Below, in pieces: positions 8,429-42,383 of a DNA stretch of 51,739 bases. The stretch covers positions 64,001 through 115,739 of the IMG/VR virus record IMGVR_UViG_2974604416_000001; one strand, 5' to 3'. Within the stretch, counting starts at the first letter, position 1, and each line of letters opens with the position of its first letter. Source of the stretch: a virus. Lineage: Duplodnaviria > Heunggongvirae > Uroviricota > Caudoviricetes > Demerecviridae. A program made the translations under genes and the position numbers. The notes under the pieces are model-generated. The model worked only from the letters and a program-made list of their open reading frames with translations, ran no database searches and had not been told where the DNA came from.

Positions 8429-8791
8429 ATGCTTTTCTATTCCTATGAAAAACTATATCTCCTCTAGAGGGGAGATTCAGATAAAATCATGTATCTGTTC
8501 AAGCGACTAGCCTAGAACAAACCTGATGCACTGTCAACCTTATCGGGCAATAACTGGATAGTAAACCCAACCGTATTTACTCTGACCAATTAGGATAGCG
8601 TCCAATGCGCTGAATTTTTGGGACTCCTCTCGTTTAGGCACTACGCAGAGTTTAAATGCACCGGCAAGACCGAACTTTCAGTTCGTGATTTGCCGAGTTG
8701 GATAACGTTATCAAGTTTAACCCCGTCACCCTTGTGGGTACTACGTGGAAATGAAATCATATTTCCAACAGAAAATCCACCCATCCTGTAA
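8429..8791 (+). CDS. homologue of the conserved T5 gene upstream of D11, 3 in-frame TAG
   Basis: MLFYSYEKLYLL*RGDSDK...AEFLGLLSFRHYAEFK resembles the recalled T5 protein; AAGGAG RBS. Confidence 0.8.
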
Positions 8792-8841
8792 TACCGCAAT
8801 TTGGTCATTTTATCCCTATCTTTGGGAACCGAGACATATAT

Positions 8842-9561
8842 ATGAGCATTAATAACTGGGGCACTGTAAAGGGCGAGAGCCAATCCGAAGGTCTGAACTA
8901 CGCAAAAATGGTTAGCGGCACTCCGCTTGTTTGCCGAATCGTATCTGGTGTGCGTCCGCGCTACCAATACTGGCTGACTAACTCCATTGGTCAGAAACTT
9001 CCGTTCGAGTCACTGTCTTTCAACCACGAAAATGAAAAGTGGATTCGTGGTGCCGTTGATCCGATTCGTGAAAAAGGTTTCACTGAATCTGATGGCAAAG
9101 GTGGTACTAAGCCTATCTCTTCCAAGCGTGCATACGCATGTGTTATTATCAACCGTGCGACCAACCAGCTAGAAGCTCTTGACCTGAAAAAGTCTATCTT
9201 CGATGGTGTTATCAAGTTCATGCAAGAATCTGACGAAGGTTACGCTAACCCGTCCGAGTTTGAACTGGTTATCGACAAGACTGGTCAGAAGTGGAACGAA
9301 GTTAAGTACGCCGTTAACGTAATGGCTACCTTGAAAGCTAACCGCGATAAGGCTGCCGTTAAAGCTCTGCACGAACAGGACGAAGCCCTGTTGGCCAACC
9401 TGAAAGACCCTATGGAGTACTGGCCGCGTCAAACCGCTGACGAACAGCGTGTAGCTCTGGAAGAGTTCCTTGCTCGTACTGCTGATGAAGCCTCTGGCAA
9501 TTCTGCAGCAGGCAATGCCGGTAACGGTGGCGCTGACGAAGCAATGAACGACCTGGACTAA
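8842..9561 (+). CDS. D11: T5 D11-like single-stranded DNA-binding protein, TAG-free
   Basis: RIVSGVRPRYQYWL, LDLKKSIFDG, acidic tail; synteny with D12-D15. Confidence 0.85.
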   Translation: MSINNWGTVKGESQSEGLNYAKMVSGTPLVCRIVSGVRPRYQYWLTNSIGQKLPFESLSFNHENEKWIRGAVDPIREKGFTESDGKGGTKPISSKRAYACVIINRATNQLEALDLKKSIFDGVIKFMQESDEGYANPSEFELVIDKTGQKWNEVKYAVNVMATLKANRDKAAVKALHEQDEALLANLKDPMEYWPRQTADEQRVALEEFLARTADEASGNSAAGNAGNGGADEAMNDLD

Positions 9562-9603
9562 TAAATTAAGGGGGCTCTATGCCCCCTTTCTTTTAGGAGA
9601 AAA

Positions 9604-10575
9604 ATGAGACTACTGTTCACATAGGACTGGCATATTAAATTAGATGTGCCAAAAGTGCCAAACCACTGGCAGATAGATAGATTCCATGCAATGGTTGACG
9701 AGCTAAACTCCGTACCTGATATAGATATGATTGTAATTGGCGGCGATTTGCTAGATACTGCAAAACCTAATGCCAAAGAAATCGAGCTTATGTTTGCGCT
9801 ACTGGCTAAGCTCAAGAGAAAGACAATTATCTACAGCGGCAACCATGAAATGACCAACGACAAAGTCCTGGGTAAATATAGTTGTTTGCATAATTTCTAG
9901 GACGAGATTAATCGTGGAAACCCGTTGGTGGAAGTTGTCTACTCATACCGTAGTAACGAGTTTGATGTGGTTGGTTATGAAGAAATATCTAATAAGAAAC
10001 TGCATAAAACCCCAACGTCAAAGCTGTGCCTTACGCATGTTCGTGGAGAAATTCAACCACACGTTAAGTGGGAGATAGACCCCAAGTTCTTTGAACAATA
10101 CGAACTTGTACTAACAGGAGATTTACATAGTCATGAGAATACTCAAGGAAAGTTTATCTACCCTGGCTCACCTCTAGTCACTTCCTTCCATAGAACCCGT
10201 GCTACAGGCAACGGTTATCTTGTAGCTGACACAGATACGTTAACTTGGGAGTGGTTTCCGCTAACGCATCTACCACAACTAATACGTAAAACTGTAAGCT
10301 CTCTGGAAGAGATGGTTGAGACTAATCACGACTGGACTATCTATGAGGTAGAGACAAATGTCCTACAATCTAAGGATATTAAGAAAACCTAGCTCTTAGA
10401 TAAGAAGATTGTATCTGGATTTGCCAAGGAAGCCGTACTAGACCTGCAAGGGACACCCATGTCCTAGGAAATGCAGCTGTTCCTGACAGATATTGCAAAG
10501 TTGCCCAAGCAAGACGTAGACAGGCTAGTAACGCAATTTAATGATTACTAGAGGAAATACGATGAAAATACTTGA
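9604..10575 (+). CDS. D12: SbcD/Mre11-like nuclease subunit, TAG-recoded
   Basis: FT*DWH, GGDLLD, GNHE, GDLH and YPGSP metallophosphoesterase motifs; continuous to TGA with TAG read-through. Confidence 0.9.
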
Positions 10576-12433
10576 GCTAGGCTTTGAGAACATGCTGTCC
10601 TACAGGGACAAAACTTCTATCAATTTTTAGGAGCCTGGAGTTACTGTGGTTACTGGCCCCAATGGCGCAGGTAAGTCTAGTATTCCTACTATCTTGGAGG
10701 AGTTGCTGTATAACAAAAACAGCCACGGACTAACCAAGTAGGAAATCCCCCATAGATACAGTGAGTCACCACACTATAGTGGTTACGTAGTATTTGTTTA
10801 GGATGGTGATACCTACAAAGTTGTAAAGACTGTCAAGTCTACATAGAAGCTACAACTCTTTAAGAACGGTGAGGATGTAAGCTCACATACCGCTACGCAA
10901 ACGTATTAGTCCATTGAGCAAATCATTGGTCTTGACTTTAATACGTTCTCCAAACTGGTAAACCAAAGTATGGATTCTAGTCTGGACTTCCTATCAGCTA
11001 CTGACTAGAAACGAAAAGAGTTTCTAGTATCTCTACAAAACCTTGAAAGATACTACGAAGTAGAGGAATCTATAAAAGCGGACAAGAAAAAGGTTGATGC
11101 TCAACTAGCTTAGGCAAGTGCTCGTGTAACTACCTAGCGAAAGTGGCTGCAATCTTTGGATATCCCTCCGATTATGGAATTAGTACCTGAGCCAACTACC
11201 GAGGAAATTGATCTGTGGAATGCTGAGATTTAGCAATGCCGGCAAGAAATGGGCGAAATCAAAACCCAGCTAAACTACGCAGATTCAAATAACCAACGTA
11301 TCTCTGCCCACAAATAGAAAGTGGCCAGTGCAGTTGCATAGGTCAACAGGGCTAAGCAAAATGCGATTCAAAAGTTTATTGACTGCGCCCAACCACCAGA
11401 AACTTCCCAACTACCAAAGATTACGTATGACCTTGGATAGTTGTCTAGTCGCATGGCTGATATTAAATAGAAGCATGCAAAACTAAAAGCAGAAGCGTAG
11501 GTAACTCAGTGCCCAACCTGTAAATCTTCTCTTGATAGAAGCTAGACTGTAAAACTAGCCAATGAACTGGCTTAGGAGTATAAGTAGCTTAAAGCAGAAG
11601 CTGAGCAGTTGCAGGAATCCAAGCAATTCATGGAAACCTATGAGCAATACCAAAAAGCTCAAGTTGAAGTGGAACGTACTACTGAAGTACTAAACCAACT
11701 GGAATCTGAGGATGTTGGTGAGTCTGTAGATGTAGCAGCGTTACAAGAAGCTACTAAAAAGCTGGAAGCTCAAATCAGGGTACTGGAAGTAAATATCTCC
11801 CAAAGGACAAGGGAAGTATCCTAGGCCCGTCGTGCTAACGACGAAATCAGAGCAAGTAATGCGGCTCGTGAATCTAAACTGGAACAGGCAAAGTAGTACA
11901 AAACCGACCTAGAGGAATCTGAGTAGATAGAATCTGAACTATCCTAGAAATCTTAGGACTTGGGACTCCTTTAGAAGAGTACCAAAGACCTAGTAGGGTA
12001 CAAGATAGAATCAAACATTAAAGTGTTTGAATCTCTTATCAACCATAATCTTTAGGAGCTTAGCGATGGTCAGTTTGGTATCGGTTTTGAGCTGGATAAG
12101 ACAAAGCTCGGTGTTGTAGTTTTTGACCACGGCACTAGGGTCTCCCTAAAAGCTCTTTCTAGCGGAGAAAAATCGCTGGTACATGTAGCGACATTACTAG
12201 CTATACGTGACACTATGGTGCACAGTTATGGTGAAGACCTCAACCTTCTCTTCTTGGATGAAGTTATTTCTGTTCTAGACCCAGAAAAGAAAGATGTTCT
12301 GGTTAGCTTACTGCTTAAAATCACTAATATGTCTATATTCTTGGTATCACATGGGTATAGTAATCAACTAACTAAATCGTTGTTAGTAGAAAAGCACCCC
12401 GAAGGCTATTCTACTATTATTCAGGAGAGTTAA
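10562..12433 (+). CDS. D13: SbcC/Rad50-like ATPase, more than 20 in-frame TAG
   Basis: Walker A GPNGAGKS, CPTC zinc hook, LSSGE signature, Walker B LFLDE; 624 codons. Confidence 0.92.
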
Positions 12434-12435
12434 TT

Positions 12436-12891
12436 TTGGGAAATCCAGCATAGGCCAAGGGCACTCGTTTTGAAACGTAGATTGCCAAAAAGCTAACTGA
12501 ATTGACTGGAGTGAAATACGTGAGGGTGCCCCTGTCTGGGGCATCCCAATTTGCCAAAGGAGACCTTATGGTTGACTTGCGAGAGGGGAAGCTATCGAAC
12601 TTCTGTATCGAGTGTAAATCCTACGCAGATGACCAAATAACAGGGAATCTACTATACCCAGGCAAACAAGTATTTGACCAGTGGGCAGAACAAACCTTTC
12701 GTCAAGCAAAGGATATGAATGCAAAACCGATGCTAATTTTTAAGAAGGATCGTGGCAAGCCAATCGTGGCTATAGACTTCGAGGTGGAAGGCGTGTAGAA
12801 CTCCATGAAAATCACACGTCCTTCTGGCACACTTTATCTTTATCTATTTGACGATCTCATTCCGATCATAAAAAATACCTTATATAAATAA
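12436..12891 (+). CDS. D14: T5 D14-like PD-(D/E)xK Holliday-junction resolvase-type endonuclease
   Basis: TTG start; KG..FE, RVPLSGA, KGDL, IECK, LIFKKDRG; 3 TAG. Confidence 0.82.
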
Positions 12892-12904: not shown

Positions 12905-13387
12905 ATGTGTATTGTTAACAAAGATTAGGAGACAGAAGAAATTCTTTAGTTATAGAAAGCCAAGTTAACGTATAACTAGGAGACTGGTATACTTAACTGG
13001 ACTTGTGGGACTAAGAGACCCTAGGGTTCTTTAAAAAGTTCTGGATATATAAGAGTAACTATCAAAGGTAGGCAGTATTTCTAGCATAGGCTAGCTTGGG
13101 CCCTCCACTATGGTTACTGGCCAAATGGAGTAATAGACCACAAAGATAGGGTTAGATCTAATAATGCAATAGATAACTTAAGAGATGTAACCCAGTAGGA
13201 TAACTCCAAGAACCAAGGTAACCGAATAAACACTACTTCTGGACATATAGGAGTATCCCGGAATAAGAACACAGGTAAGTTTGAGTAGTACAAACATATA
13301 AAATACAAGAAAATTTATCTAGGCAGTTTTGATACCTTAGAATTGGCTATAGCTGCTAGAGCAGAATAGGACACCTTATACAAATGA
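12905..13387 (+). CDS. HNH homing endonuclease with AP2-like C-terminus, TAG-recoded
   Basis: YF*HRLAWALHYG...IDHKDRVRSNNAIDNLR...SGHIGVS...IYLGSFDT. Confidence 0.88.
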
Positions 13388-14310
13388 GTTATGAAGAAAT
13401 TGATGATCTGGCCCCGAAACAAACCCTATGGGATAAAGCATTGGCCAGAAAGAATGTTAACGGGAAAAACCTCCTAGTTGTGGATATGAATAACCTTGCG
13501 TATCGCTACAAACAACGCGGCCAAGTAGATTTCTAGGAAGATATGATTCGCACCGTAGAGTCTCTAGCAAAAAGCTACTCGGCACTACATATTGTGTGTG
13601 CGTGGGATCACCGCTCCTCTTCTTACCGTAAAAGCATTTATCCTGGGTATAAGGGCGGGCGTAAAGAGAAGTACAAAGACCAAACCCCAGAGGAAAAGCT
13701 TCAAGCAGAAATGTTCTTCAACGGGTTAGATGAAGCATACCAGCACATGGTAATCCACGAAAAGAACACAGGCTTTGTTACCAATTTCAAATTTGAGTTT
13801 GTAGAAGCGGATGACCCCATTGCACTAACTGTGCAAGTTATGGAACCGTTTGTAGACCACATTTGGGTTATCTCCACCGACCAAGACTTCTGTCAGCTTA
13901 TCTCTAACAAAGTAAGTCTTTTTGCATATAAGTCTCGTAAAGAGTTTACCTTAGACACGATGTTTGAATATACTAACGCAGACTCAGGTGAGCAGCACCT
14001 ATTTATTAAGTGCCTGCAAGGTGACTCAGGAGACTCCGTTCCAGGGGTTCCAGACGTAGGGCCTAAAAGGGGTTATGGCCTAGCTAGAGAGTATGGAGAT
14101 ATCTTCTCCCTGATTGCGGCGCTACCTATTGAAGGCAAACAAAAATATATCGTGAAGTTAAATGAGTTCGGGGCTAGTAACCTAATGCTGAACCTAGAGC
14201 TGATGGATTTAAAGAGCTACTGCGCTACAGCCATTGCATTCCCTAATCCTGCAAACCTAGACTACATGTTTGATAAGCTTGAGAAAATTAAGGAGATCTA
14301 TAATGTTTGA
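13384..14310 (+). CDS. D15: flap endonuclease / 5'-3' exonuclease, one TAG
   Basis: LLVVDMNNL, YKGGRK, EADD, STDQD, GDSGDSVPGV. Confidence 0.93.
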
Positions 14311-14785: not shown

Positions 14786-14814
14786 AAGAAAAGGAGCCCT
14801 AGGGCTCCTTTTTT
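14786..14814. terminator. bidirectional intrinsic terminator between convergent early and late units
   Basis: A-run, GGAGCCCTAGGGCTCC inverted repeat, T-run. Confidence 0.8.
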
Positions 14815-14815
14815 G

Positions 14816-15355
14816 TTATACACGATTTTTAATCCAACCGTACAGGAATCTTTCATTCTTAGGGTTCTTTTCAGAGATCTCCAAGTAATGAGTTCCTTGT
14901 GTGCAGCGCACGGCTAGTAGGAGAGTGTCCTAGGAGCCACGCTACTTAATGAAAGCATTAAGCTATCCCAGAGTAGACGGACCAATCTTGCCGTCTACAG
15001 CCTGGTCAGCGTAGTACTTCCCACCATCATTAAACGCATTTAGCCAACGCTGGAGCATCTTAATAGATGTTGCGGTACCCTAGTTGATACCAAAGTCTAT
15101 CAAGTCCTCCCCAAGCTTGGCGTCAATGTCATAAATCTGGTCTAGCTTAGGTTTCTTAATATACTCCCTAGCATAAATATCTTTGGCCGTCTGGAGCGGC
15201 AGAGCGCTCATATGGCCAGTATAGCCATTGGCACGAGCAACCTATTCAGTTATTCCGTATTTAGTCTAACCCCCACTATCGTAGGGGTCATTTCCATACT
15301 AACCTTCAAGATTGACTACGTGATCAATAACTTTATCGTAGTCTGACTGCTTCAT
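14816..15355 (-). CDS. GH108 lysozyme (probable endolysin) with peptidoglycan-binding domain, 7 TAG
   Basis: LEG*YGNDPYDSGG*TKYGITE*VARANGY...VDGKIGPSTL...FLYGWIKNRV. Confidence 0.88.
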
Positions 15356-15403
15356 ATTATACACTCCTGCTATTACGCTAGTTGTTTAAAGCGGACCAAT
15401 TTG

Positions 15404-15872: not shown

Positions 15873-18800
15873 TTAGGTACCATTTATTAGCCTCCTTAAC
15901 TGGTCTATCTCATCCTTCAACTCTTTAATGGCCTCTACAAGTAGGGCATTCACAGCAGAATTAGAGATTGTCAAAGTTGTATCTTCGGCCTCCTTAACGG
16001 CTTCTGGGAGTACCATTCTCAAGTCTTGAGCAATCAAACCCACTTCGCGGCTTACGACATCTGAATCGGTAATCGATTTGTGCTTGTTGTAAGAATAAGC
16101 TTGGAGCTTAGTTACTTTATCAACTGCACCTTCAACTCTGACCAAATCAGATTTCATTCGACGATCTGAACGGATATAGACATCATTGAAGTTGCCGTTA
16201 CCAGGACTGTTGAATTCACCACTACTACCGTTGAATGTCCATGCCTTGTTCTGGTTACCAGCACCATCCATGAAATGTAAGCAATACACTCCTGGGCTAG
16301 CACCTGCATTAGACAGATGACCTAATGTGTAGTACCCGTCATAACCTTCGGTATCATGGAAATACATACTGAATGCTGGAGCCCAAGAAGAACCTTGGTG
16401 AGCTACCTTAGCATGGTAAACACCTTGGCCTCGACGCCATACACCACCTACAGTGGTACCGTTGTAAACACCTTCATTCATACTAGGTGGAGTAGCAGAT
16501 GTATGAACTGAACCGTTCTGCTTGATACCAAACCAGTTACCTTCTTTATGTCGAATTCTTAGGTAGTCTTCATCGGACCACATCAGAGAACGCTCAGTAC
16601 CGTTAGCTCGACGGAACCATACATGTTGGTTCGCGTTATCAGAATAACCAAGGTTGAATACATTACTCTTGACAGTTAGTGAAGTATTTACAGTGGTTTC
16701 GGTTGCGTCTTTATTGATTTCAATGACATTCTTATTCCATACACCGGAGTCAGTCCAGTTTGCAATAGAGAATTCATTGCCAGTACCTTTAAGAACACCC
16801 CATTTGTACTTCGAACCATCATTGACGTTGTTTAGATAAAATCCGCCTGCCGATCCGTTTGTACAAGTAAAGTTCTGTTGAGTAGCAACTCCTGTTAAGA
16901 ATGTCGATTCAGTCGGGCTATTGAAATCGATTACTTTACTCGCGGTTCCATCAATTTTAACTGAGATATATGGTTTAGTTGTGTCAGTTGGTGCTTCAAG
17001 ACCTACCCAGTTTTTACCATCTGGACTTTCGGCAATAACTGCTTGCTTGGCATAAAAAAGGCCAGTTAAACGGCCGCCTGAGATTGGAAGCGCTCCAACA
17101 TCGTTTGCGGTTGGGTTGAAACTTTGATGGTAAATTCTTGAACCTGTGCCTATTCTCCAATCATTTTCGCCATAATATCTCAGTGCATATGACCAAACAG
17201 GATCTGTTCCAGTTGGTAAAATTGGTGCAATTTCAGAATAAGTTGAACCGCCGCCGATATGAATACCGCCAGCATTATTTGCTTTACTACGAATAACCCC
17301 ACTCGTTGCGTTAAGTCTAGGGACATTCAACTCACCGGTCATGGTATCACCGGATTTATTCACTGCACCAACGTCTGCCGCAGTGGGCTTTCTATCTGTA
17401 GTATATACGTACCCATTAGCTGAATGGTCTAAGTTTCCACCAAACCTTAACTAACCAGAAACATCAACACCCAAGTACTAGGTCTGAGTAGCAGAGTACT
17501 TGTACCCAATACCTACTTGCTAACCCCTTTCAAGTGTTATAGGTGCGGCATTGTTAACCTGAACAGATAACTGGCCAAGCAGTGTACCACCACCGTCATG
17601 AAGAATCTTCTTAGAGCCTATTCTCCATGTGTTGTCATTGTAATAGCGTAGTCCTTCGTCGTAATTGTAGCCAGCCTGTCCCGCAGCTTTACCAGCAATC
17701 TCGGCGTAACCCTAGACGTTCCCACCCAGAGCTAGACTACCTACATCAGTCCTATCTTTATTTACAACAACAGTAGACTGCGTCTCCACCCCTGCACGAC
17801 ATACCATAGTGTTGCTAGAATAGAAGTGGTTACCTGGCTGGAATTCTGCAAGCAGCCTAGTCTTAGTACCGACACCAGCCTATGGGTTTGTAACAGCCTA
17901 CGAAAACACTGTAGTGCCGTAGGACATATCCAAGCCTGTACAGGCAACGTTAGCGCTAGCTCTTACACGCACGTTTACAGGGAAAGCACGAGCTTCGACA
18001 TAGATAGCATAAGCTGTCTATGCTTCTGAGCTGCCAAGGATAGAATGAATCTACCTCTCGTTAGAGCTGTATATAGTAAATTGACCGTATACGTAAACTC
18101 CAGTATCCGACCAACCACCATTGTGGATTTGACCATCAAAGGAACAGTAGTTCATCGGGTCTGCTCCACCACTAGACCTTGTTTCCACAAACAAGGAATG
18201 GTCAGAGCCATAGTTAGATACTACAATTGGATAGTACTTACCTGCCACTACTCCCTAAGGTGCTTGGATTGTTACGGTTTTTAGGGATTGCTCATCAATT
18301 ACCTACTTGGTGTATGTACCTACATCCTCGGAAGTTACAGTGATATCAGCATTCAAGCGCTTGCCATTAACTGTACGGGTATCAGGTACTGCTCCTAAAG
18401 CTCCTGGGGAGGTGTTACCCTAGTGGTATACTTCGTTACCTCTTACTTTAACAGCGTTAGCAGAGATATCTAGGTCACCCCTACTGGTGGTGCCTATTGT
18501 ATTTGTTACAGTAAACCTTACATCGTTATCTAAAGTACTATTTTCGGCATGAAAATCTAAAATGCGGCCTACTTCCTATACCCCGTCAGAACCTACTCTT
18601 AGTAGTTTACCTACTACATCCTAGTAGTTACTACCAGTAGGTAGTAATGTAGTAGAGATAGCGCCGATTTCTGCTAGCGTCCAAGAAACATCAGCAGAAC
18701 CATTAACAGCTTTAGCGGTTCCCCCTATGGTTAGGTTACGTGAAGTACCCCAGTTCTAGGTAGTAATATTAGCAGTACCATCAAAGTTTGTTCCATTGAT

Positions 18801-20903: not shown

Positions 20904-21166
20904 TACTACCTCGCTAGTAGCCCCTCAAGGGTAAGTGTGGCGTCTGTTGGAGAAATATAAACGCCACATCGTTGTAATCTTTTTAAACTTTTACTATCAT
21001 ACAACGAAATATCATAGATGCCAATAGGTAATTGAAAGTCGTATGTACCATCCTGCTAAATGGCCTAAGTACCAGCAACTTTTTCTAGCTGTAGAGCCCC
21101 AGAGTTCTGGGGCTCAATCAATACTAAAGTTATACTGGTATTAGTAGTTCCGGTTATCCTGGCCAT
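20903..21166 (-). CDS. small tail protein (fibre attachment/collar position)
   Basis: AAGG RBS; ends TAG-TAA, overlapping the fibre ATG. Confidence 0.65.
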
Positions 21167-29800: not shown

Positions 29801-30686
29801 GAATAATACGGTTTAGTGCGTCGTCAAGGTCTACGCCAAGAGCTACAGAAGCCCTACGTGCGGCCAAGGTAAACTGGGATACTTGGTCAGAGGTGAACCC
29901 GTATGCTGACGCTTGGGCAGCTTTCTGCATAGCACCTTCAAAGCTTACAGCATACCCTGTTGCCTCAACCATAATATCGGCCAAGTTAGAGATTGATACA
30001 CCAGTCTCTGCACCTACCACCTGGTTTATCTTTTCTAGCCTATTTAGTCTGTCACCAGCAGCTAGTTGGTTGTATGCCTCTGTAAGTGCGTAAACGTTTG
30101 CAGCAATAGTAGCATAGATCATTGGTAGCGGGCCAGCTATCTTTGCCAAGTCCTAGAATGCCCTTGTACCACCTTTAGTACTTCTCTAAGCTCCTTCAAT
30201 ACCCTTAGAAGCCCTGGCCTAGGAATCTCCAACTCCGCTTAGACCTTCTTGCATCTTCTCAGTACTAGTAGCGGTCTTTTTAGTCTGCTAGTCAACCTTC
30301 CTTAGTGGATCAAGTAATCTTTCTAGAGTAAGAACTACTTCGTCATTGCCTTGCTTAGCTATGTGGGTGTACTCCTCAAAAGAGGCTGAAAGTTCACTAA
30401 TAGTTCCTTCTACATCCTGTATTGCTGCAACCACCCCATCGAAGTAGTCCTACATGTTAGCCCCAGTACCTATAGTTTCTAGGGTATTAGCTAAGCCTCT
30501 AGACAGCTTACGAGCCTCAGTTAGGGCCGCGTTGGTGACGTTTATCTGCTCATTAAGCAGTTCTGTACCTGCAGCAGCATCTTCCATCCTATCACCCAGC
30601 TAGGTCTACTATTTTTCTGCCTACTTTAGAGCTCTGCTATTTACCTTAATAACTAGCTCTTCAAGTAGTTTTGGATTTTTTGCCAT
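26862..30686 (-). CDS. pb2: tape measure protein (~1274 aa), heavily TAG-recoded
   Basis: Long helical protein; ALNRIIRGVSKLEIELLDELGI motif; start and stop in frame. Confidence 0.85.
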
Positions 30687-30766
30687 AATTACTCCTATAA
30701 AAATAAAGCCCTGAGCCAAAGTAGACTCAGGGCCCCGACAAAAGAGTTTCGGAAGTGTGGAGGAAC

Positions 30767-31569: not shown

Positions 31570-32451
31570 TTAATCCTCCTTCGGGCCTATTATTTCTATT
31601 GTATCTGTGGCCCTAAAATCCCAATAAAGGGTATTAACTGACTAAATATTCTATCTCTTGGTGGCTAATCCATTAACCTACCTAACATGCAAACCAGACT
31701 GAGAAACCTCGAAATCAGTGTACATGCTATCCTACATTTCTAGTCTTTCTTTAGTGACGTATTCTTGTACCACTCCACCAAGGTTCGATTCACCAACTAT
31801 TCTAGCGCCCTAAGGCACAATCACGTCAGTGTTAAAGCAGTTTACTTGTGAGAGTTGTGTGTACTAGCGCTGGAAGGTGACAGACTACCCAACCTAGGAG
31901 GCTTCGTACCCGGATAGCTGTGTAACTACTGGGCCGGGAAGCATGTGGTCTCCTTGTGGTTCTAAAGTAGCACCCGATAGAACAGAAGTGTCCTACTGCT
32001 AGAGCGTCTTTGCAGATAGTGTAATAGTGATTTGGCCTACTTTATCTAACTAGAAAGGTAGGTCGATACTTTCTACCTAGCATCCTGTTAAACAGAACTA
32101 CCCACCAGCAGAAACAACATAGATGGTCGCCTCCCTCTAGGAATCACCTAACTTTTCTGGGTAGCTTAGAACTAATCGTCTAGGCTCATATTCATGAAAT
32201 CCTGCCATTCTAAAGAATACTGATTCTCTGAAACCTTTTGTGATATAGGTTGTTAGAGTTATAGAGAAGCTTGAGTACTCTCTGGCTTGTAGCTAAGGAG
32301 GACTATAACCAAATATGGTTTTCCTATTTGGGCCCTACTGCCTTATTGAAGTGTCACCAGATAGCTCAGTAACTGCGTCTAGAAGAAGCCACTGGCCTTC
32401 AAAATTTAAGGCTATCTTAGAATCATATAGAATTAGTGGGTTTCTAGTCAT
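31570..32451 (-). CDS. minor tail / baseplate tube protein (T5 p140-like)
   Basis: 294 codons with TAG read-through; synteny after the major tail gene. Confidence 0.7.
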
Positions 32452-32496: not shown

Positions 32497-33636
32497 TTAA
32501 ACTGGAGTAACAAATCCTGTTGTCAGGAATTGGTCAATCTTGGTACGGTTAAGGTTTGGAGCCATGCAGAAGCGAACTTCGTCACCTGTAGACATGTCAG
32601 TACCCATACCCTTAAATTCGATGTTAAGACCCATCGCATCTTCGGTCTGCAACTCAGGTACGGATAGGTGAGCATTCGGTAGATGCACAACAATACCAGG
32701 AACCATGCTAGTTGCGTAGTAACCACCAATCATCAACTGGATCTTGAAGGAGTTGACAGAGCCAGTCATCTGTGATAGTAGCTTCCAAAGGTCGGAGGAA
32801 CCGTTGGCAACGTCATTCAAGTAGCACTCTAGGCTACCACTAACATCCAAGCCGCCAGTAAAGTATCCGATAGGACGGTCAACACGGTTTAGAGTGTTAG
32901 GTGTCAGATAACTGATGTTGTTGGAGATAGTGATGGTAGCTGCTGTGATGCCAATCTGGTCGTAGGTCAAACCGCTAGGCGCGTTATTGACAACTTTCAG
33001 AATGGATAGCTTGTTCTTAATGTAAGAGTTTTGCAGCCTTACGAACTCAGCGTCAGTGATACCGATAGTAGCTGGGTCAAATGGTTGAGCTGCTAGAGGC
33101 TCAATAAGGCCAGCGTTACCAGACCAGGTAATACGTGCAATATCACTAATATCTACAGAGATTTCAGCAGTATTAATCTAAATATCCGCCGCCTTAAACC
33201 AAATAGAGTCAACCAGCATATACAGGTGAGCCTTAGATAGTTCGTGGTACTGACTATCTTTGAAGGAAACCACTTGGTTCATCTTGTCTTGATAAACACC
33301 CTTTTCTTTGGTACCCGGTACAAAAGGGGAACCAGAGGCTAGACAGTGCCACAGAATCTAGTCTGGGGTACTAATGATTGCACCAACATCCGCAGCCTAG
33401 ATAGGTAGGATGTAGTTAGAGAATGACCACTCACCCGGGTCGATTGCATCTGTAAAACGACGAGCACCACGGATAGGCTTTGGTCCAGCCTCATCTAGGG
33501 TGATGTCAGTGTTAGTAGAAGTTTGACCGAAGCTCAGGTCATCCCCTACTAGGATTTCAAAGGTATTTGCCTTAGTGAACCCAGTTGTTACTGTGGACAC
33601 AAATACCCTGGTGTTACGAAGTAACTGAACGGCCAT
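32497..33636 (-). CDS. pb6: major tail tube protein, few TAG
   Basis: MAVQLLRNTRVFVST, RGARRFTDAIDPGEWSFSNY, YLTPNTLNRVDRPIGYFTG. Confidence 0.9.
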
Positions 33637-33646: not shown

Positions 33647-34123
33647 TTAGATAATTCTACCATCTTCACAATACTTGAGAGTGATAGATAATTCACCAAT
33701 GGCTATAGGTCTTAAAATACCTTCATCGGTTGTAAGTCCGCTTAAGTTGTCGATAGCTACGTACCTAGTTTCGGTGGAGCCATCAGGATTACTAACAGTA
33801 TATTGTATACGCTCTGGCGTATCAAGAACTTTTTTAAGGTCTCTCAAGAGTAGCTGTATTTGTCGCTCTGAATCGTACTCGTCCTTGTAGTAAGCCCTAA
33901 CATACACCCTTAGAAGAGTCCAGCGTACGCCTCCAGGCTGATATTCATACTCCTCTGGCCCCTAGGTGATAGTAATCATAGGGAAGGAGGTTACTTCTTG
34001 GGCTAAGTAAGACTTAGTTTGTACGTTGTTATAGATGTTATGAAAATACTTAACACCTACGTTTTCCTAGCATAGCTCGGTTTTTACCTTGGCTGCTAAG
34101 GCTTCGCAAATATCTACTGACAT
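33647..34123 (-). CDS. tail terminator (T5 p142-like)
   Basis: FPMITI...TDEGILRPIAIGE; 159 codons. Confidence 0.78.
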
Positions 34124-34869
34124 TATCTCCTCCAATGTTGCTTGATATCAATCTTATATCTAGTCAGGCCTAACTGGGCTGCCTATTTCTATAGCTATTC
34201 AGTGATTAGTTTTTGTGGGTTTCTCTAGTTGCTAGATAGCCCTCTGTACCTAGATACCTGCGGGTCGAACACTGAGTAAGGACGAACCATATAAGTAAAA
34301 AACACAGATAAAGTGTTATTCTTAAGAACTAGGGGCTTCAAATCCACACTATACTATAACCTACCTGTGCGGTATACTAGACCAGAGGTGCCAGGACTTT
34401 TCATTTCAGCTACTACATTAGAAATGGTGGCTAACTTAAGGGCGTTTCTAAGATTTACTTCGGAAACGAACCTACCTTTACCATCTCTAAGGCCTGAATC
34501 TGATTTTTGTCCTCTGTATCTGCTATACTTACCTATATTAGTAGATATAACCTACTTCCTAGTTATAGCCCTAGACTATGGCTACATTCCCATAGCCTAT
34601 AAAATACGGTTCATAACATCTAAGTCCCCAGAAATAATAGCAGCCTAGACATTATCTACCAACTGCTCTGTTATGCTGGGGTTATCTTTAACTTGGGTTT
34701 TGAAGCTAAAGCTCACACTTGCTATGGATTCTTTAGGGTCTCTGGAGTCACCTAGCTTTATGGTCTCTGTTATCCTTAGATTACCATTATCCCTAGCTAG
34801 TGCTTCGTTAGACTCCTCTGGAACTTCTAGCTGTTTTACTAGTTTATCCGTAAAGAATTTACTCTACAT
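34123..34869 (-). CDS. tail completion protein (T5 p143-like); codon 2 is TAG
   Basis: YRTGRL*YSV, YMVRPYSVFDP, N*RNPQKLITE*L*K*AAQL. Confidence 0.82.
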
Positions 34870-34871
34870 AA

Positions 34872-35381
34872 TTATTTCCTATATAGGTCTAGGATAGATT
34901 TTACATGTGACGGTAGGTAGGAGACCTTATCGAAGTTAATCGCTTCTCCACCCTAGGAAATCTAAGACTTATATTCTTGCTTGTGGTAAAACTTCACCAG
35001 TTCCATCACAGCCACTTTAAGCGCTGCTAATCCTGGGATTTCCTAATTGGCTGCCGTAGTGCACACCAATTTAATAGACCCCTGAACTTCCTTAGATAGC
35101 ACAATCATGTAACCTCGCATAATGTTGGCGGTTACGTCAGCTAGGTTACCATTCACGTATACTTCGGTTATCTAAGAGATCCCTTCTTGGTCAATAATCA
35201 TTCTGTTATTTGGTAGGGGTAGATAGTCCTGTACCTCTACGGTTCCCTATGTGACCTCTTTTATGTTGGTATAATCCTACACAAAGGAGTTCTACATTTC
35301 AAGTAGATTAGTCAATTTCTACTCATCTTGTGGAGTAGTAATGGACATATACTACTTTAGTTCTGATAATGTTGCAAACAT
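34872..35381 (-). CDS. head completion / head-tail connector protein
   Basis: GGAGG RBS; LPSHVKSILDLYRK C-terminus; 170 codons. Confidence 0.78.
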
Positions 35382-35445: not shown

Positions 35446-36825
35446 TTAAGCGGCGTACTTAGCAGACACAACACCGTTCGGGAACATGCGTTGCAGGTTC
35501 AGACGCTGAGTTGCGTAGTAAGCATCACGTTGCTTACCCGCTTGACGCTCTTTCTCAACAGTCAGTTGACGCTGACGTGGAACTACGAAGTTGTCGGTGT
35601 AAACGATAACAGCGTATTCTTTCTCAGCAGCCTTAGCTGGGAAGTACTCGGAGATAACTACTGGCATACCGTAGATACGACCAACTTGACCTTGAAGCTT
35701 AACAGAAGCTTCACCAACTTGGTTAACATCTTGCCACTCAGGATCTTCCAGCAGGTCGTAGTAAGCGTCCAGGGAAACAATCAGAGTCAGCTTGTTAACG
35801 TTGTAGCCGTAACGGCCAAGGTGACGACGCAGCTTGGAGATTTCCAGTGCAGTAACCTTAACAGAACCGTCAGCCTTAGCTGGGGTGGCAACAGCACGAC
35901 CGTCATCAGTAGCGAACTTCAACAGACCAGTAGGAACACCTGCACCGGTACCGTTCATGAATGCGTTCTCAATCGCCTTAGCGTGAGCTTCGATCAGGTG
36001 ACGACGCAGGATAGGAAGCAGAGGAAGAACAGCATCTTCTTCAGTTTCGTCGGTCATGAAGATCTTAGCAGCCAGTTTGAAGGTGCTGAAGGTCATTTCG
36101 CCAAGGGTAACTTTGATTTCGTTACCAACAGTTGCGTCAGTACCAAAGGTGGAGTTGTCTACCCAGTTGGCAGTACCAGCTTCTGGGTCAACCAGCATGG
36201 TCAGGGTCTTGGAGTTCATCGGCAATTCGGTGAACAGGTTACCTACAACCAGGGCCTTCTGGATATCACGCAGCAAGTTGGTGGAGAAAGTGGTTTCGTA
36301 GTCTTCGCTAGAAACTTGGATAGAAGAAGAACCGTTAACGGCCTTCAGGTGGCTCTAACCGTACTTGGTTTCAAACAGGCTCTTCTCAGTCAGATAAGAC
36401 AGGAATACCACGTTTTCAACTTCACGGGACAAGTCCTCGGACTTAGCATAACGCAGAGCACCTACGTTCATGGCTGGTAGGCCGGTACGAGCAGCAACCA
36501 GTTGGTTGATTTCGCCAGCTTGTGCCTTAACTTGCTCCTGCATAGCTTCCAGAGCGTCGGCGAATGCTTTGCCGCTTTCTTGCAGCTTAGCTTCCAGAGT
36601 CTTGATGGTTTCGTTAGCAGCTTCAAGAGACTTACGCTGTTCTCCGGTAGCACCTTCGATAAGAGCCTTGATACGCTCTTGTTCAGCCTTCTCTTTAGCA
36701 GCCTTTTCCTCGGCCTCCTTCTACGCCTTCTGAGTATCGTTCAGAGTCTTTAGAGCGGTAGAGATATCGTCAAGACCAAGCTGGGCGCGCAGAGCGGTAA
36801 TATCAATGTTTTGATTCTCGTTCAT
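35446..36825 (-). CDS. pb8: HK97-fold major capsid protein with N-terminal scaffold domain; only 2 TAG
   Basis: Closely resembles recalled T5 pb8 (VKLQGQVGRIYG, ERQAGKQRDAYY); TAG at codons 35 and 157. Confidence 0.95.
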
Positions 36826-37463
36826 TTCACAGATTTCCTTAAGCACCCAAGCTGACGAGCTAGTTTTACAATTTCTGGCTCAACAGGGGCAATTTGTGTA
36901 TTTTGTTTTGTGGAAGTAGGTTCTTTAATCAACTTAGCTTTTAACTCTTCACGGTTTTGAACCCCGAAAGACTTAGCCAAGTTAAACATGGAGTCTTGGT
37001 TACACGGGACAGAAACTACAGAAAGCTCAGTCATTTCTATCTCAGTCATAAGAAAAACGTCAACATCGGGTTTGTATTCCCAGTCCAAGAGACGGAATCC
37101 AATGGAGAATGCTTTCAGGATATTTTTCTTAATCTACTGGAATACAGCTGGGATTGTATTAGAAATCCTCACTCGAACAAAGAGACCTTCGTCTTTTACT
37201 TCCAGAGACTCAACTATGCCGATAGGCATAGAGTGGTTGTGATACGCTAGTACAATAGGATTCTTTCTATAGTTAGAAAGCTAGGATTCTTTTTCCCATG
37301 TACTACGTGGAATCAAATCGCCAGCCCTGTCAACGGTTGTGGTGTTGGCCATACCTTCAATTATGATATCGTCTTCATCACCACCTTCTGGTGCGGCTTT
37401 GATTACGGAGTTAATAGAGAAGTCTATAAGACCCTCTGCTCCCTTAAAGCGTTCATCACTCAT
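36822..37463 (-). CDS. prohead protease
   Basis: EGMANTTTVDRAGD, NPIVL*YHNH, FSIGF, ELSVVSVPCNQDS. Confidence 0.9.
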
Positions 37464-37746
37464 CTTTCTTCACCATTACTTTAGGAGGTGGAGTAGGCTT
37501 GACAGGCTTAGCCGTAACAGGTATTGCCTTGGTAGGCTCTACAGCTTCGCGTGTTTCTGCGTACTTCTTAAACTCTTCTTCCAGTTTCTGGAATGCTTTA
37601 CCTAGTGTAGGCTCACAGTAAATGCCTTTCAGCATCGCTGGAGTTACAATGGATTCAGTCTATCTAGTAGCGAAGAATAGGTGACGTGGAGGGAGCTTTT
37701 TACCGAAAAGCTTAACCAGCTATTCAAGTTTGCTTTGCTCAATCAT
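37456..37746 (-). CDS. hypothetical protein with Pro/Lys-rich tail between portal and protease
   Basis: 97 codons, 2 TAG, overlaps both neighbours. Confidence 0.6.
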
Positions 37747-38984
37747 TTGTCATCCTCGTTTGCTGGCCTGCCACCTTCTTGTCCTGAAACTCCGGTACCA
37801 GAACCCTAGATATTCTAAGGAACCCTGATTTGAGTTGTTTCTGGCAGTTTCAGTGCGGAAAGCCCTAACATAAGTCTACCCTCGTCTGCAGTAATCAACC
37901 CGTTATTCACAAGCTACGTTACACGGGTAGCTTCCTTCTGAGTATCAGGTGAGAGAGCAAATACGTCCGAAGTATCTAATTCGAAGCTATAACCGAAAAA
38001 CGCAGAAAGCTAACCGGTAAATTTCTTTAGGTTTGGTAGAATCGTTAAACTAAACATCAAGTCAATATTCGGCCTAATGTTAGCATTGTTCCCACCCTCA
38101 AGAAGGATAGGCGGAACTCCCATCTATGTACAGATTGCCTCGTTATGGGCTTTCTTGTCTTCATTGATACCTAACTGACCCATATCAATCTGAGCAGTAT
38201 TTTTAGCTTTTAGTCCCCCATCAAGAATCATGGCAGAGTTCATGAACTTACCGTTCTTGGTGTTGAAATTCACGTTGATGGTATCAAGTAGCTTGTCCTT
38301 GAAAGACTTACTTAGTACAGATTCGGTTTCTAAGATAAGACCCAGCATAGTACCATTATCTAGGTAACGCTCCTTGAAAGAGCTTAGCTTGTCTTTTCTT
38401 ATGATATCATTTTCCGCAGCCTTATAGCGCGAGTTCGCGCTGATGGCTGATGCCCCTACCCCATGAGTGTAAGAGTTATCCTTAATAAAGATAACTTCAT
38501 CAGTACTTAAACGACGGTCTCCAAACATGTAGTATTCTACAATGTTGTTACTGCCGGAGTACACCTTGACTTCCGTTTCTGGGATGTGGTAGAGGGCGGT
38601 GCCATCCCATACCGCAAATGCTCTGCCACCCATCCAGTAGTCGGTAAGTAGTAGTCTCCAAAAGGAGTTAGCATCTTGGAATAGGTTTGGCTTAATTTCT
38701 AGTAGCTTAGCTAGGGTGGCCTTGCTTGCAGTACTATCTTTCCGATTCATCTCAGATAGGCCCTTAGCTAGAGGGGTTACGTTGAGCTTTTTGCCAACAG
38801 TAATCTTTACCTCAGCCTAGCTATCAACTAGTATGTTTACGCACCTGTTGAAAACTGGGTCAAGCTTATAGGAGTCTGCCGCTGTTCTCTTATTAGGAGT
38901 AGCGGTTTCACCTGTAGGCTCTTTATCTTTGATATCTGACTGCACTGGATTCTTTTTGGTGAATAACCAGCTTTTAATATTCAT
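37743..38984 (-). CDS. pb7: portal protein
   Basis: IFIKDNS, ILDGGLK, GGNNANIRPN, VP*NI*GSGTGVSGQEGGRP. Confidence 0.92.
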
Positions 38985-38995: not shown

Positions 38996-39421
38996 TTAGC
39001 ACTTAAATCTGGAGAAGCGACCCTAAGAAGCCTAGGTGTGGGAACCTGACTACTTGTCATGTTGCTTCTGAACCCAATTACGTTGGGCATCTGCTGTATT
39101 AAGGAGAGGAGTCACACCATAGATTCTGTGCAACTCTTTGTGGTGTCCCTAGCAAAGAGTTACTGTGTCATCAACTAGTTCGTACCACCGCTCCTTATAA
39201 ATCTCTTCCCGGATTGAAACACACTCGTCTTCCGTTTCCGGCTAGGGCAAGTTATTTGCAGTGATAAACTAGTCCACAACTAGTTTAACAGAGTGATAGT
39301 GGTGTAACTCCAATTCTTGTTCAGAGGAACAAATGGCACAGCATTCCTACTTTTTGTAGTTCTACTTAATACCATCGCGTACGTACTTAACGACGTCACG
39401 CTTCTTAGTGTTAGCAGCCAT
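38996..39421 (-). CDS. T5-like HNH-fold nicking endonuclease next to portal
   Basis: CAICSS...LELHHYH...VTLC*GHHKELH. Confidence 0.75.
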
Positions 39422-39508
39422 GGGCTCTCCTCATTTCTATATAAACATGATATGCTATAGGTTTGTATTTGTAAAGATGCGTTTAAAAGTTCACTGGCAC
39501 AGACTAAA

Positions 39509-39910
39509 TTAGAAGGTGTACTTCCAGTGAAGGGTTAAAACACTGACCTTACCAGAGGGTATCCAGCCTATAATAGAGGTAATAGGGCCGGTTCTATATC
39601 CTAGCTCAAACTGCCCCATAGGTAATAGATCGTACTTCATGGGTGTGTCACCATAACCAGTTACTGCACCAACTTGTACGCCCTAATAAACGTCATCAAA
39701 CCACCAACCATAGCTCTTAGTAACCATCACGGAAGGTTCATAGTAGGAGTTATTAAACTATACAACACTCCAACCATCGTGTTCATACCCAACAGTTAGA
39801 TTGCGCTCATTAAAGTGTCTGGTCTCATTCTTGTAAGTGTACTCTCTAGCCCCGATGTGGTAAGAGAAGCCCCCTAAAACTAGGGAGCTCTATAAAGTTA
39901 ACTATAACAT
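39509..39910 (-). CDS. putative small outer-membrane beta-barrel (PagP-like), 4 TAG
   Basis: Hydrophobic N-terminus, GGFSYH...FNE.N...FNNSY...VGAVTGY, amphipathic strands, C-terminal WKYTF. Confidence 0.6.
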
Positions 39911-39913
39911 AAA

Positions 39914-41206
39914 TCACCTTACGAAAGTATAAATTGCATATCTAAATGCGTCCGCTACGTGAGAGTACTCATCGTGTAGGGGTCTTGGATCACGGCTGGG
40001 GTCGATTTCTGGGTCCCACTGATAGTTACGCAGCATCATAATATGCTTAGTACAGTTGTCTAGAACGAATAGTTTATCCTGCTGGAATAGAGATTGGATA
40101 TACTCGATACTATCAAGAGTAGATTTCTTCTACTTGATACTCTAAATATCATGCAACATCTACAAGTCAGCAGCAAACTGCGCGGCAGCGTAGTCTACAA
40201 ATACCATGTCAATCCCATACTTGTCCATTAGCTTAGTGAAGTTCTCAGCATGCTGCTAAGTAGTAAGTCGAGCCTACTCGTACTCATCACATACATAGAA
40301 TACATCTTTCTAGCCGTGGTACAGCAGACAGCTACCAGCAGTACTATCGGTATAACCGTGGTCAATACCCATAATGAATTCGAAGGTACCATCGTACTAG
40401 GGAAGCTATGGGACAACATGACGCTCCTGGTCGAAGCAAGTAAAAATCTGAGTTTCGAAAACGTCGAAACATGCCTCATACTCTTGTTTAAACTTAGCCG
40501 GGGAACAAGTTCTTCGGGCTTCTGCAATAACCGATTCTGGTACACGAGGGTTATCTCTATACGTACCGTGGATGGAGGCCCAACGACTAAGTTCTTTATC
40601 AGTACCTCGGTCATAAAACTTTCTAAACCAATTATCCCCACGAGGGGTACTAATAAACAGCTACTTACTATTCATTTTGTCCAACATTGGGCCAATTTGT
40701 ACGTCGAAGGTATCCCCACCCCGCCTATCAATCTAGGCCTCCTCATATATTACTAAATCGTAAGAGCGTCCTACTACAGAGTCTGCACGGTTTACAGAAC
40801 CAAGCTTGAAGAAAGAACCATTCTCAAGTTCAATTTCTTTATCTTTAGCGTTCTCTTTAATAGTCTCTACACCTGAACCCTTAAGAAGCTTCTTGATTTC
40901 ATCCCACCCGATATTAGCAATACTATAGTTGGGAGCCATTACCAAAACCTACGCACCAGGTTCTAGTAATTTTAGAAACTAACATGTATAAGCTATAAAA
41001 GACTTACCTACACGTCTGGATACGCAACAAGTTAAGTAACGGCAACGGGGGTCATTTAACTAGTTAATAATACCTATCTGTACTTGATTAGGTTCTACGC
41101 CTATTACATCTAGGTAGTTTTCTACTGGAAGCTAAAAGAAACGTTCATCAACGGGGATGTACTTGTTTAGCTCCTAGTATGTAATCCAATCTCTGGTTAC
41201 CTGCAT
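39914..41206 (-). CDS. terL: terminase large subunit
   Basis: SRRVGKS Walker A, YEEA*I Walker B, K*LFISTPRG, GIDHG, HDEYSHVADAFRYA. Confidence 0.95.
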
Positions 41207-41925
41207 ATAACCTCCATGAGCAATTGCTGGCTTATATCTTGTATTTGAGTAGCAGATAAATCAAAAAATTCAGTGTTACCATTATTTACCAGTGGGTTGT
41301 ACTTATTCTCAACACTATACTTTTTATGCAACTCCTTTTCTCTAAGTACCTACTAACTACCAAGGTTATACACCCCCAGTATTGATAGATTACCGCCTAT
41401 ATTTAAGATTCTCTATTTAAGGTTGTTAGTTACCCCTATCTTAGTAAGTCCGGTGTTATTACATTTTAGTAGGTATAAGAAATTTGACTTAGCGCCCTAC
41501 TAGCACTAGGGACACCCATGCCCAAGGTTAATGTGGTTAGCTGGAGTGATGCTAAAAGGTCCATGTTTTCTACATATAATGGTAATCTTTGTTTTACTCC
41601 TAGAATATATTGAACCCTAATAGTCATAAGTATCACCATGAACCTATCGCTACTTGGCAATAAATAACTCCTGGGTATCCGGTTTTACTCCGTGAACCTA
41701 GCAACTAGGGCAACCCTATCCCTTCATATGATTACCGGGGGAAACCTTAAATATACCATGTATCTTACACTTAACTGACTATAGGGTTTTTGAATCTGTA
41801 TACACAAACTCGGAGTAGTCGTATTTTTCACCATGCCTAGCCATGAACTTCTGGACCTAAAGTTCTGTTTTTCGTTCTATTGGAAGGTAGGGGTTTATTC
41901 TGCCGTCTGAGTATAATTCTTTCAT
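41197..41925 (-). CDS. homing endonuclease: two zinc-binding (CxxHG...GCPxC) repeats plus GIY-YIG-like domain
   Basis: HGEKYDYS, CKIHG, GCPSC, LYLL...KIGVT...GNTEFF; about 11 TAG. Confidence 0.82.
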
Positions 41926-42383
41926 TTCTTTTTACCGTTGATGATTTTGTCAAGCAACTAATTGTAGTTCTCCCCCCCATTTATCTGGATGTTGGTGGTG
42001 TTATTGTTTTGAATGAGGTTTGTGGTTTCCTAAAGTTTCATCGACATTTGGAGTTCCTACATTTTCATCTTATGCTATTTCTCAAGTAATGTAACAATAT
42101 CCATATCTGGTAGCATGCCTGTTTCTTCCATTTCTTCGATTTTAGCATTAATAATTTCATCCAACAAACCAAACATCCTGTCTCTATTTCTAAAGCCAGC
42201 TTCCTAAAACTGCTGGTCTAGGAGGGCCTTAACCGGACGTTGTGATAGGAAAGCAGACACATTTTCTATAGGCATGCCTAACTAGGTGGCTGTTTCCTTC
42301 ATTGAACACCCATTTGACAGATAGGTATTCATAACAGTAATAGCCTCCGGGGAGACTTCTAAGGGTACTAATTCTTTGGCCAT
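41922..42383 (-). CDS. terS: terminase small subunit
   Basis: [34 protein letters not shown]; GGAGG RBS. Confidence 0.85.

Follow-up and report, generated by a model that had tools for sequence, protein, structure and literature searches.

Probable reassignment of UAG from stop to alanine in a T5-like Aeromonas phage of the genus Shenzhenvirus

Background

The closest described counterparts of the system reported here are the code-15 phages (crAss-like, Lak and other gut phages; Ivanova 2014, Borges 2022, Peters 2022), which infect standard-code hosts, carry a transfer RNA with a CUA anticodon, tRNA(CUA), and end their genes at TAA or TGA, with TAG found inside structural, lysis and packaging genes whilst part of the genome is TAG-free. 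The same features are found in the subject of this paper, a 51,739-nt stretch of DNA (the window) that makes up bases 64,001-115,739 of a single 115,739-bp viral sequence, IMG/VR record IMGVR_UViG_2974604416_000001, from a T5-like phage of the genus Shenzhenvirus. However, in this phage TAG very probably stands for alanine and not for glutamine, the tRNA has the identity elements of alanyl-tRNA synthetase (AlaRS), the virus is T5-like, in culture and infects a gammaproteobacterium, and TAG is also present in some early genes (D12-D14).

That the genus is TAG-recoded is known already, Cook et al. 2024 (PMC11210395, Table S1) having listed MG676224, MG676225 and MK318083 under NCBI translation table 15. 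In the same study recoding in the Demerecviridae was found to be sporadic and coding capacity rose from 58% with table 11 to 86% with TAG read through; the amino-acid meaning of TAG was not examined. Seki et al. 2025 (bioRxiv 10.1101/2025.10.30.685624) reported that one of 29 metagenomic phage tRNA(CUA) gave alanine in Escherichia coli extract and the other 28 glutamine, and called reassignment to alanine infrequent, citing algal mitochondria and Mukai 2017. Their tRNA(CUA)-151 is, as the one described below would be, a natural phage-derived tRNA(CUA) inserting alanine at UAG, but no genome-level code was inferred from it. Our literature search found no paper describing a phage code in which UAG is alanine. 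The first-pass annotation of the window had proposed a new viral code; the recoding itself had been listed before, whilst its alanine meaning is apparently undescribed, so that what is new is the amino-acid assignment, in a culturable phage.

Recognition of tRNA by AlaRS is independent of the anticodon, as has been established. In Pachysolen tannophilus CUG is alanine (nuclear code 26), a likeness in that an Ala-identity tRNA captured a codon since AlaRS ignores the anticodon, although there one sense meaning replaced another and the genome is that of a cell. Amber suppressors engineered from tRNA-Ala, with a CUA anticodon, were reportedly made by Hou & Schimmel in 1988 and by McClain & Foss in 1988, and a note on tRNA-Ala in the T5 record is also relevant; they pair G3:U70 with a CUA anticodon and put alanine at UAG in E. 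coli, but they are laboratory constructs whereas the phage tRNA is natural, with a genome written for it. Allo-tRNAs with G3:U70 have also been described (Mukai 2017, PMC5389517). UAG is alanine in some chlorophycean (Sphaeropleales) mitochondria as well (Hayashi-Ishimaru 1996), although the user there is an organelle whose translation machinery is reduced and whose release factor repertoire is its own, whereas here a virus would impose the code on a standard-code cell bearing release factor 1 (RF1).

The phage and its relatives

At the nucleotide level the window is 96.5% identical to Aeromonas phage AhSzq-1 (over 5.9 kb), 93% to AhP_Mru1 and 74-76% to Akh-2 and vB_AdhS_TS3, all of them Demerecviridae of the genus Shenzhenvirus, with Aeromonas hydrophila or A. 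dhakensis as the isolation host. This identity to type isolates, together with T5 gene content and order, places the phage in the genus, and the standard-code gammaproteobacterial host presumed at first pass is in keeping with relatives that grow on Aeromonas, which uses the standard code. Pfam searches recovered the T5 gene set in T5 order, comprising a nuclease group (D12/D13, SbcCD-like; a PDDEXK nuclease; HNH endonucleases; the D15 flap endonuclease; dUTPase), a GH108 endolysin, the tail genes (L-shaped fibre, pb4, pb3, pb9, tape measure, p140, tail tube, p143) and the head and packaging genes (capsid, protease, portal, terminase). Four of the families in the window are T5-specific (pb4, pb9, p140 and p143), and homologues of dmp, A1 and A2 are also present.

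TAG as a sense codon

Translation of positions 8429-42383 with table 11 gives fragments only, the longest open reading frame (ORF) being 496 amino acids (aa), whereas allowing read-through of TAG yields single ORFs that correspond to complete T5 proteins. There are ~380 in-frame TAGs in ~31 genes between 8429 and 42452, and the read-through ORFs include those at 15873-20903(-) (1676 aa, 84 TAG), 26862-30719(-) (1285 aa, 66 TAG), 23267-26134(-) (955 aa, 34 TAG) and 10541-12433(+) (630 aa, 24 TAG). The first-pass claim that many essential genes (D12-D15, tape measure, portal, terminase and others) need read-through of TAG to be complete agrees with this ORF and Pfam comparison, in which the endolysin and all tail, head and packaging genes need it too. 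The span it gave, 8429-42383, is indeed recoded, but the recoding is not confined to it: TAG-bearing genes occur at 916-1728, 2111-2839 and 49910-51738, and the phenomenon is genome-wide. Reading through TAG also produces many spurious antisense ORFs (115 versus 40 ORFs of at least 100 aa).

TAG was never found as a terminator, as the first-pass annotation had also concluded from the gene ends it checked. Of the 136 called genes 98 end in TAA and the other 38 in TGA, and in 28 of 28 genes with orthologue-anchored ends a TAA or TGA lies 0-8 codons past the end of the T5 orthologue, in a tail without TAG. The base that follows is T at 53% of real stops and at 18% of in-frame TAGs, the latter resembling sense codons; beyond a slight excess of G and A at this +4 position there is no strong anti-termination signature at in-frame TAGs. 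In-frame TAG with homology across it, absence of TAG as a terminator and a phage tRNA(CUA), the features by which recoded phages are recognised, are all present, and it is a near certainty that TAG is a sense codon in this phage.

It could be argued that the TAGs are untranslated, being the marks of broken genes, of an assembly or base-calling artefact, or of low-level programmed read-through, and the GenBank records of the relatives do annotate fragmented genes, that of AhSzq-1 having for example two "portal" and two "capsid" coding sequences. This is exceedingly improbable given that ~40% of TAG sites are kept as TAG between isolates from China, India and Korea, that amino-acid conservation continues through the TAGs in phages that form plaques, that TAG is missing from all gene ends, and that there is a dedicated, perfectly conserved tRNA(CUA).

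The amino acid at TAG

To avoid bias TAG was translated as X and the proteins were compared by tblastn with those of T5 and Salmonella phage smaug, both of which use the standard code. Over 616 TAG columns alanine accounts for 24% against a background of 8%, a threefold excess, followed by serine, glutamate and lysine, with glutamine at 6%. A likelihood test that set the profile of the TAG columns against the profiles of the individual amino acids favoured alanine, with serine at -108 and glutamine at -181 ln units, and the same procedure run as a leave-one-codon-out control recovered 59 of 59 sense codons. Alanine stays first if the columns are limited to those where T5 and smaug agree or to those with identical flanks. 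A masked alignment of this kind had been suggested at first pass, with columns dominated by glutamine, serine or glutamate named as the outcome that would count against alanine; none of the three came first.

Deeper alignments give the same answer. The large terminase subunit was aligned with 110 homologues of at most 57% identity, and its TAG residue 158 (Walker-B region, DEAA) falls in a column that is alanine in 110 of 110; the TAG residues 49, 359, 349 and 182 are matched by alanine in 101, 98, 95 and 89 of them. Altogether five of its 15 TAGs are at columns that are 81-100% alanine. Alanine is also the most likely residue for D13, where TAG residues 102 and 156 are alanine in 83 and 88 of 101 distant homologues, and for pb3, where the column of residue 422 is alanine in 20 of 20 representatives.

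Of eleven sites picked out at first pass as TAGs where alanine would be expected, ten were TAG at the position given, the lookup at 34227 returning nothing. Seven of these ten are alanine in T5 and smaug (TAG written as an asterisk): FT*DWH (SADHH), YEEA*I (DEAAI), NSK*LF (NSKALF), both sites of VP*NI*GS, KST*K (KSTAK) and, in most HNH paralogues, YF*HRLAW; CPSC*GN aligns to serine and ITT*NWG has no T5 alignment. The accompanying argument was that such a match cannot come from simple drift; GCN codons are at least two mutations from TAG. Most TAG columns are not alanine in T5. Only about a quarter of them are, and therefore most TAGs arose at variable positions and not by replacing ancestral alanine codons. 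The remaining columns are mostly serine, glutamate, lysine and glutamine in T5, and of these all but serine, taken as a class, are a single step away from TAG. If TAG is alanine the TAG-rich proteins contain 12.8% alanine, compared with 9.3% in T5.

Glutamine, the meaning of TAG in table 15, is one alternative, and is how TAG is read by crAss-like and other recoded phages. Among phage reassignments of TAG, published proteomic support exists for table 15 alone, it is the table under which Cook et al. 2024 (PMC11210395) filed MG676224, MG676225 and MK318083, and public protein collections show Q at the TAG sites. The columns do not bear out a glutamine assignment: beyond the likelihood deficit already given, real glutamine codons taken through the same comparison are at columns with 29-30% glutamine and 5-6% alanine, against the 6% glutamine of the TAG columns, and no conserved TAG column in terminase, D13 or pb3 is dominated by glutamine. 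We regard this alternative as very unlikely, and the tRNA, described below, points the same way.

The tRNA that reads UAG

The phage genome has 34 tRNA genes, one of which has a CUA anticodon. This gene, at genome positions 60,691-60,765, lies 3.2 kb upstream of the window and 6 nt upstream of a tRNA-Ala(UGC), and its discovery answers the suggestion, made at first pass, that the rest of the genome be searched for such a tRNA. The acceptor end is G1-C72, G2-C71, G3.U70 and G4-C69 with discriminator A73, the D-loop has GGGA as in bacterial tRNA-Ala, and the anticodon loop has A36-A37-A38. The AlaRS identity set is thereby complete, G3:U70, A73 and G2:C71 being joined by G20, which was assigned from an alignment with tRNA-Ala D-loops. 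The molecule is canonical, scoring 69.5 bits against the Rfam tRNA family (RF00005), the best of the neighbouring tRNAs, and it is 100% identical in five Shenzhenvirus genomes whose proteins are ~70% identical, whereas its tRNA-Ala(UGC) neighbour is variable. Neither T5 nor smaug has the tRNA(CUA).

The identity set of glutaminyl-tRNA synthetase (GlnRS) is G73, a weak 1:72 pair and G3-C70. The tRNA(CUA), with A73, G1-C72 and G3.U70, does not have it, which further argues against glutamine. Since AlaRS does not read the anticodon, we infer from its identity set that the tRNA is charged with alanine by the host AlaRS, and it would have to be the host enzyme because the phage has none: no match to AlaRS (PF01411) or to RF1/RF2 (PF00472, PF03462) was found in the phage genome in searches that included positive controls, so that the synthetase and release-factor proteins which the first-pass annotation thought worth looking for did not turn up.

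Two other identities were considered. Tryptophan was rejected, as the tRNA has A73 and not G73 and U35 and not C35, and tryptophan is the rarest residue at TAG columns. Pyrrolysine, suggested by the ARAGORN label tRNA-Pyl, was rejected because the cloverleaf is canonical and the label derives from the anticodon alone, no search aimed at pyl genes being made.

A separate observation concerns window positions 2812-2898 and 2907-2990 (+), which hold two tandem tRNA-like units, each with an 8-bp acceptor stem, G3:U70, A73 and CCA. They have a normal T-arm, no ordinary D-arm and anticodon-like loops CCU and UCU (arginine type), were not called by ARAGORN and gave a weak, below-threshold score of 28 bits against Rfam tRNA-Sec. 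These units might be allo-tRNA-like RNAs charged with alanine, or non-decoding tRNA-like RNAs as in T5.

Turnover of TAG in the genus and its relatives

Between genus members whose proteins are ~70% identical, 40% of TAGs are retained. Where the partner of a TAG is another codon it is most commonly GCN (148-152 sites), even though this is at least two mutations away, whereas tyrosine, a one-step neighbour of TAG, is almost absent. Glutamine is the third commonest partner, which could be taken in favour of a glutamine meaning but is explained by CAG to TAG being a single transition. More distant relatives, with 66-72% terminase identity, are TAG-recoded too; in one of them alanine is the most likely meaning, and in the other there is a near tie, with serine ahead of alanine by 0.8 ln units.

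Four independent lines, namely the homologue columns, a tRNA(CUA) with the AlaRS set, the interchange of TAG and GCN, and the deeper-branching relatives, thus support alanine, and on this comparative evidence we consider it very probable that UAG is alanine in this phage.

Points against alanine

A number of observations weigh against this assignment. Alanine makes up 24-26% of TAG columns with T5-like homologues, whereas for GCN codons it is 35-45%, and some conserved TAG columns are not alanine at all: terminase residue 25 and D13 residue 123 are at conserved lysine columns (lysine in 87 of 101 for the latter) and D13 residue 505 is at a conserved serine column (75 of 101). An alanine balance, setting the drop in GCN against the rise in TAG relative to T5 orthologues, gave small slopes for all residues and does not discriminate. 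No factor directed against RF1 was found in the genome, and an ORF with 84 TAGs would need near-complete suppression. The body of the tRNA(CUA) has BLAST matches to tRNA-Trp of mycobacteriophages and its anticodon arm resembles their tRNA-Trp(CCA); the tRNA may combine an alanine acceptor and D-arm body with a Trp-like arm that is a single mutation away from CUA. Furthermore, tRNAs with a CUA anticodon can be partly mischarged by GlnRS or lysyl-tRNA synthetase in E. coli, and there may be some heterogeneity of residue at TAG.

Several of these points could be accommodated if TAG were ambiguous or meant another small residue, for example mainly alanine with a sizeable share of serine, glutamine or lysine through mischarging or near-cognate host tRNAs, and serine is always the runner-up in the likelihood ranking. 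We consider this improbable, though less so than a glutamine code. The tRNA(CUA) has no long variable arm and so lacks serine identity, second place for serine is predicted by the substitution spectrum of alanine, and G3:U70 is invariant in 22 members of the tRNA family. The lysine and serine exceptions are expected if the site tolerates alanine, because the codons of lysine, glutamine and glutamate, and the serine codon TCG, are one mutation from TAG.

Distribution of TAG and a proposed mechanism

TAG is not spread evenly over the genome: 52 of 117 genes of at least 80 aa are free of it, compared with 6.9 expected at a uniform rate. In the late block at 15873-42452 it is present in 21 of 21 genes (326 TAGs, 3.7% of codons). 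Both kinds of gene occur in the early region, D12-D14 being TAG-rich and the genes for DNA polymerase, NadR and PnuC TAG-free. Density is 0.4% in the capsid protein and 0.8% in the tail tube protein, which are the highest-copy products, and ~5% in the low-copy fibre, tape measure and p140 proteins, a pattern that would fit a per-codon cost of competition with RF1.

In T5 the first-step-transfer DNA carries the pre-early genes, whose expression precedes entry of the remaining genome, and the tRNA genes are in that later DNA. By extension from T5 biology the TAG-free state of the pre-early genes dmp, A1 and A2 would be a necessity and not just a preference, because the tRNA genes arrive later.

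In the mechanism that we propose a Shenzhenvirus phage would have reassigned UAG from stop to alanine in a standard-code Aeromonas host. The host AlaRS would charge the phage tRNA(CUA) with alanine, and the tRNA would insert alanine at UAG in competition with the host RF1. TAG has been removed from gene ends, and all genes stop at TAA or TGA. Pre-early genes would be translatable before the tRNA genes enter, whereas the tRNA would be needed for all 21 late genes and for some of the early ones. The charging by AlaRS, the logic of timing and the outcompeting of RF1 are the steps that we infer.

Gene content of the window

The first TAG-bearing gene of the span, at 8429-8791(+), encodes 120 aa with 3 TAGs and has no family. 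It is followed on the plus strand by a D12-like SbcD nuclease (Metallophos; 9604-10575, 5 TAG), in which the TAG at 9622 aligns to the alanine of SADHH in T5 and smaug, the D13-like SbcC/Rad50 ATPase (10541-12433, 24 TAG), a phage PDDEXK endonuclease (12436-12891, 3 TAG), an HNH endonuclease (12905-13387, 9 TAG), in which the TAG at 13082 corresponds to the alanine of AHRL in most T5 and smaug HNH paralogues, and a D15-like flap endonuclease (13384-14310, 1 TAG). The endolysin (GH108 and PG_binding_3; 14816-15364, -) has 7 TAGs, including that of GG*TKYGIT at 15266; a plus-strand ORF at 14813-15346 was considered as a gene and rejected as spurious, family support being found only for the overlapping minus-strand endolysin.

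All of the tail, head and packaging genes are on the minus strand. The tail genes encode the L-shaped tail fibre (phage_tail_N and Peptidase_S74; 15873-20924, 84 TAG), the straight fibre protein pb4 (21168-23270, 25 TAG), a pb3-like baseplate hub (23267-26134, 34 TAG), the distal tail protein pb9 (26134-26739, 7 TAG), the tape measure protein pb2 (26862-30719, 66 TAG), the baseplate tube protein p140 (31570-32451, 16 TAG), the high-copy pb6-like tail tube protein (32497-33636, only 3 TAG) and the tail completion protein p143 (34123-34926, 12 TAG). These are followed by the major capsid protein, the highest-copy protein (35446-36879, only 2 TAG), the prohead protease (Peptidase_S78; 36822-37463, 2 TAG), the portal protein (37743-38984, 6 TAG), in which the TAGs at 37815 and 37806 correspond to both alanines of PANVAGS in T5 and smaug, and the large terminase subunit (39914-41206, 15 TAG). 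The last TAG-bearing gene of the span (41922-42452, 6 TAG) is a homologue of the T5 gene at 107,937-108,401, in the small-terminase position.

Inserted between the terminase genes is a T5orf172/MUG113 protein with a treble-clef zinc finger (41197-41925, -, 13 TAG), which has a paralogue at 51058-51738(-) with 5 TAGs; both are probably homing nucleases. This pair and the HNH genes at 2111-2839 and 12905-13387 all bear TAG, which shows that the mobile nucleases share the code of the phage.

The pre-early block, all of it TAG-free, falls at window positions 42717-45530 on the minus strand (dmp, 42717-43364; A1, 43433-45226; A2, 45093-45530), the record being permuted. Self-BLAST of the whole record found no terminal repeat, and a long terminal repeat of T5 type was probably collapsed during assembly. 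A further TAG-free module, of early genes at 4280-6464(+), encodes a cyclic-phosphate-processing receiver domain (cREC_REC) protein, a NadR-like nicotinamide mononucleotide (NMN) adenylyltransferase/ribosylnicotinamide kinase and a PnuC transporter, and looks like a phage set for the salvage of nicotinamide adenine dinucleotide (NAD+).

Related tRNAs in other viruses

The exact 25-nt pattern of the anticodon arm had no match in IMG/VR, and a degenerate pattern was needed, which combined an Ala-type D-arm with a CUCUAAA anticodon loop and left the 3' acceptor strand unspecified. One match is a 135-kb viral contig of 32% GC, IMGVR_UViG_3300002494_000025, which is unrelated to Shenzhenvirus and has as its only RNA genes a tRNA-Ala(UGC), a homologous tRNA(CUA) (118731-118806; G3:U70, A73) and a transfer-messenger RNA. 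Dozens of its ORFs have 5-41 in-frame TAGs, one of 2504 aa having 41, and in its PhoH protein TAG is at alanine, glycine and other small-residue columns.

A further 54 tRNA(CUA) genes, with 21 distinct sequences, were found in 48 metagenome contigs. In all 22 distinct sequences, including that of the phage studied here, G3.U70 and A73 are invariant whilst pairs 5:68 to 7:66 covary; among other tRNAs of the same metagenome loci G.U is found at 3:70 in just 3 of 52. Many of the contigs have long ORFs, which in several cases reach 800-1850 aa, only if TAG is taken as a sense codon, and a phoH gene with 10-28 TAGs is often near the tRNA(CUA). Over the phoH TAG columns of at least six lineages alanine is the most likely residue, by just 4.4 ln units over serine, and TAG is found at several columns that are 70-85% alanine in 111 standard-code PhoH proteins, which is suggestive of an alanine meaning in these lineages. 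Five metagenome contigs of 24-27% GC also carry, beside the CUA tRNA, one to three copies of an ochre-type tRNA(UUA) with G3:U70 and A73.

The lineages so far comprise the T5-like Aeromonas phages, the 32%-GC 135-kb virus and many AT-rich metagenomic contigs. We lean slightly towards the view that UAG as alanine is a distinct, recurrent phage code in which one family of Ala-identity suppressor tRNAs, mostly CUA and some UUA, serves unrelated lineages. If this is true, genomes with 3-7% TAG in many genes would imply that the host RF1 is neutralised or outcompeted, and public databases would be mistranslating the proteins of all these lineages with glutamine.

Implications

For annotation the consequences of an alanine meaning in Shenzhenvirus would be direct. 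Large protein collections put glutamine at every TAG and GenBank splits the genes, which would be systematic errors if TAG is alanine, and both could be put right by retranslating with alanine. The tRNA(CUA) is also a possible tool, as a natural and efficient-looking alanine amber suppressor.

For phage biology, alanine would be a second stop-to-sense meaning, reached by a route that the blindness of AlaRS to the anticodon predicts. A plaque-forming phage with an easily grown host would, unlike the gut metagenomic phages, provide a bench system in which to ask how RF1 is beaten at 84 TAGs in one ORF, whether recoding acts as a gate on late genes, and whether it sets the phage apart genetically.

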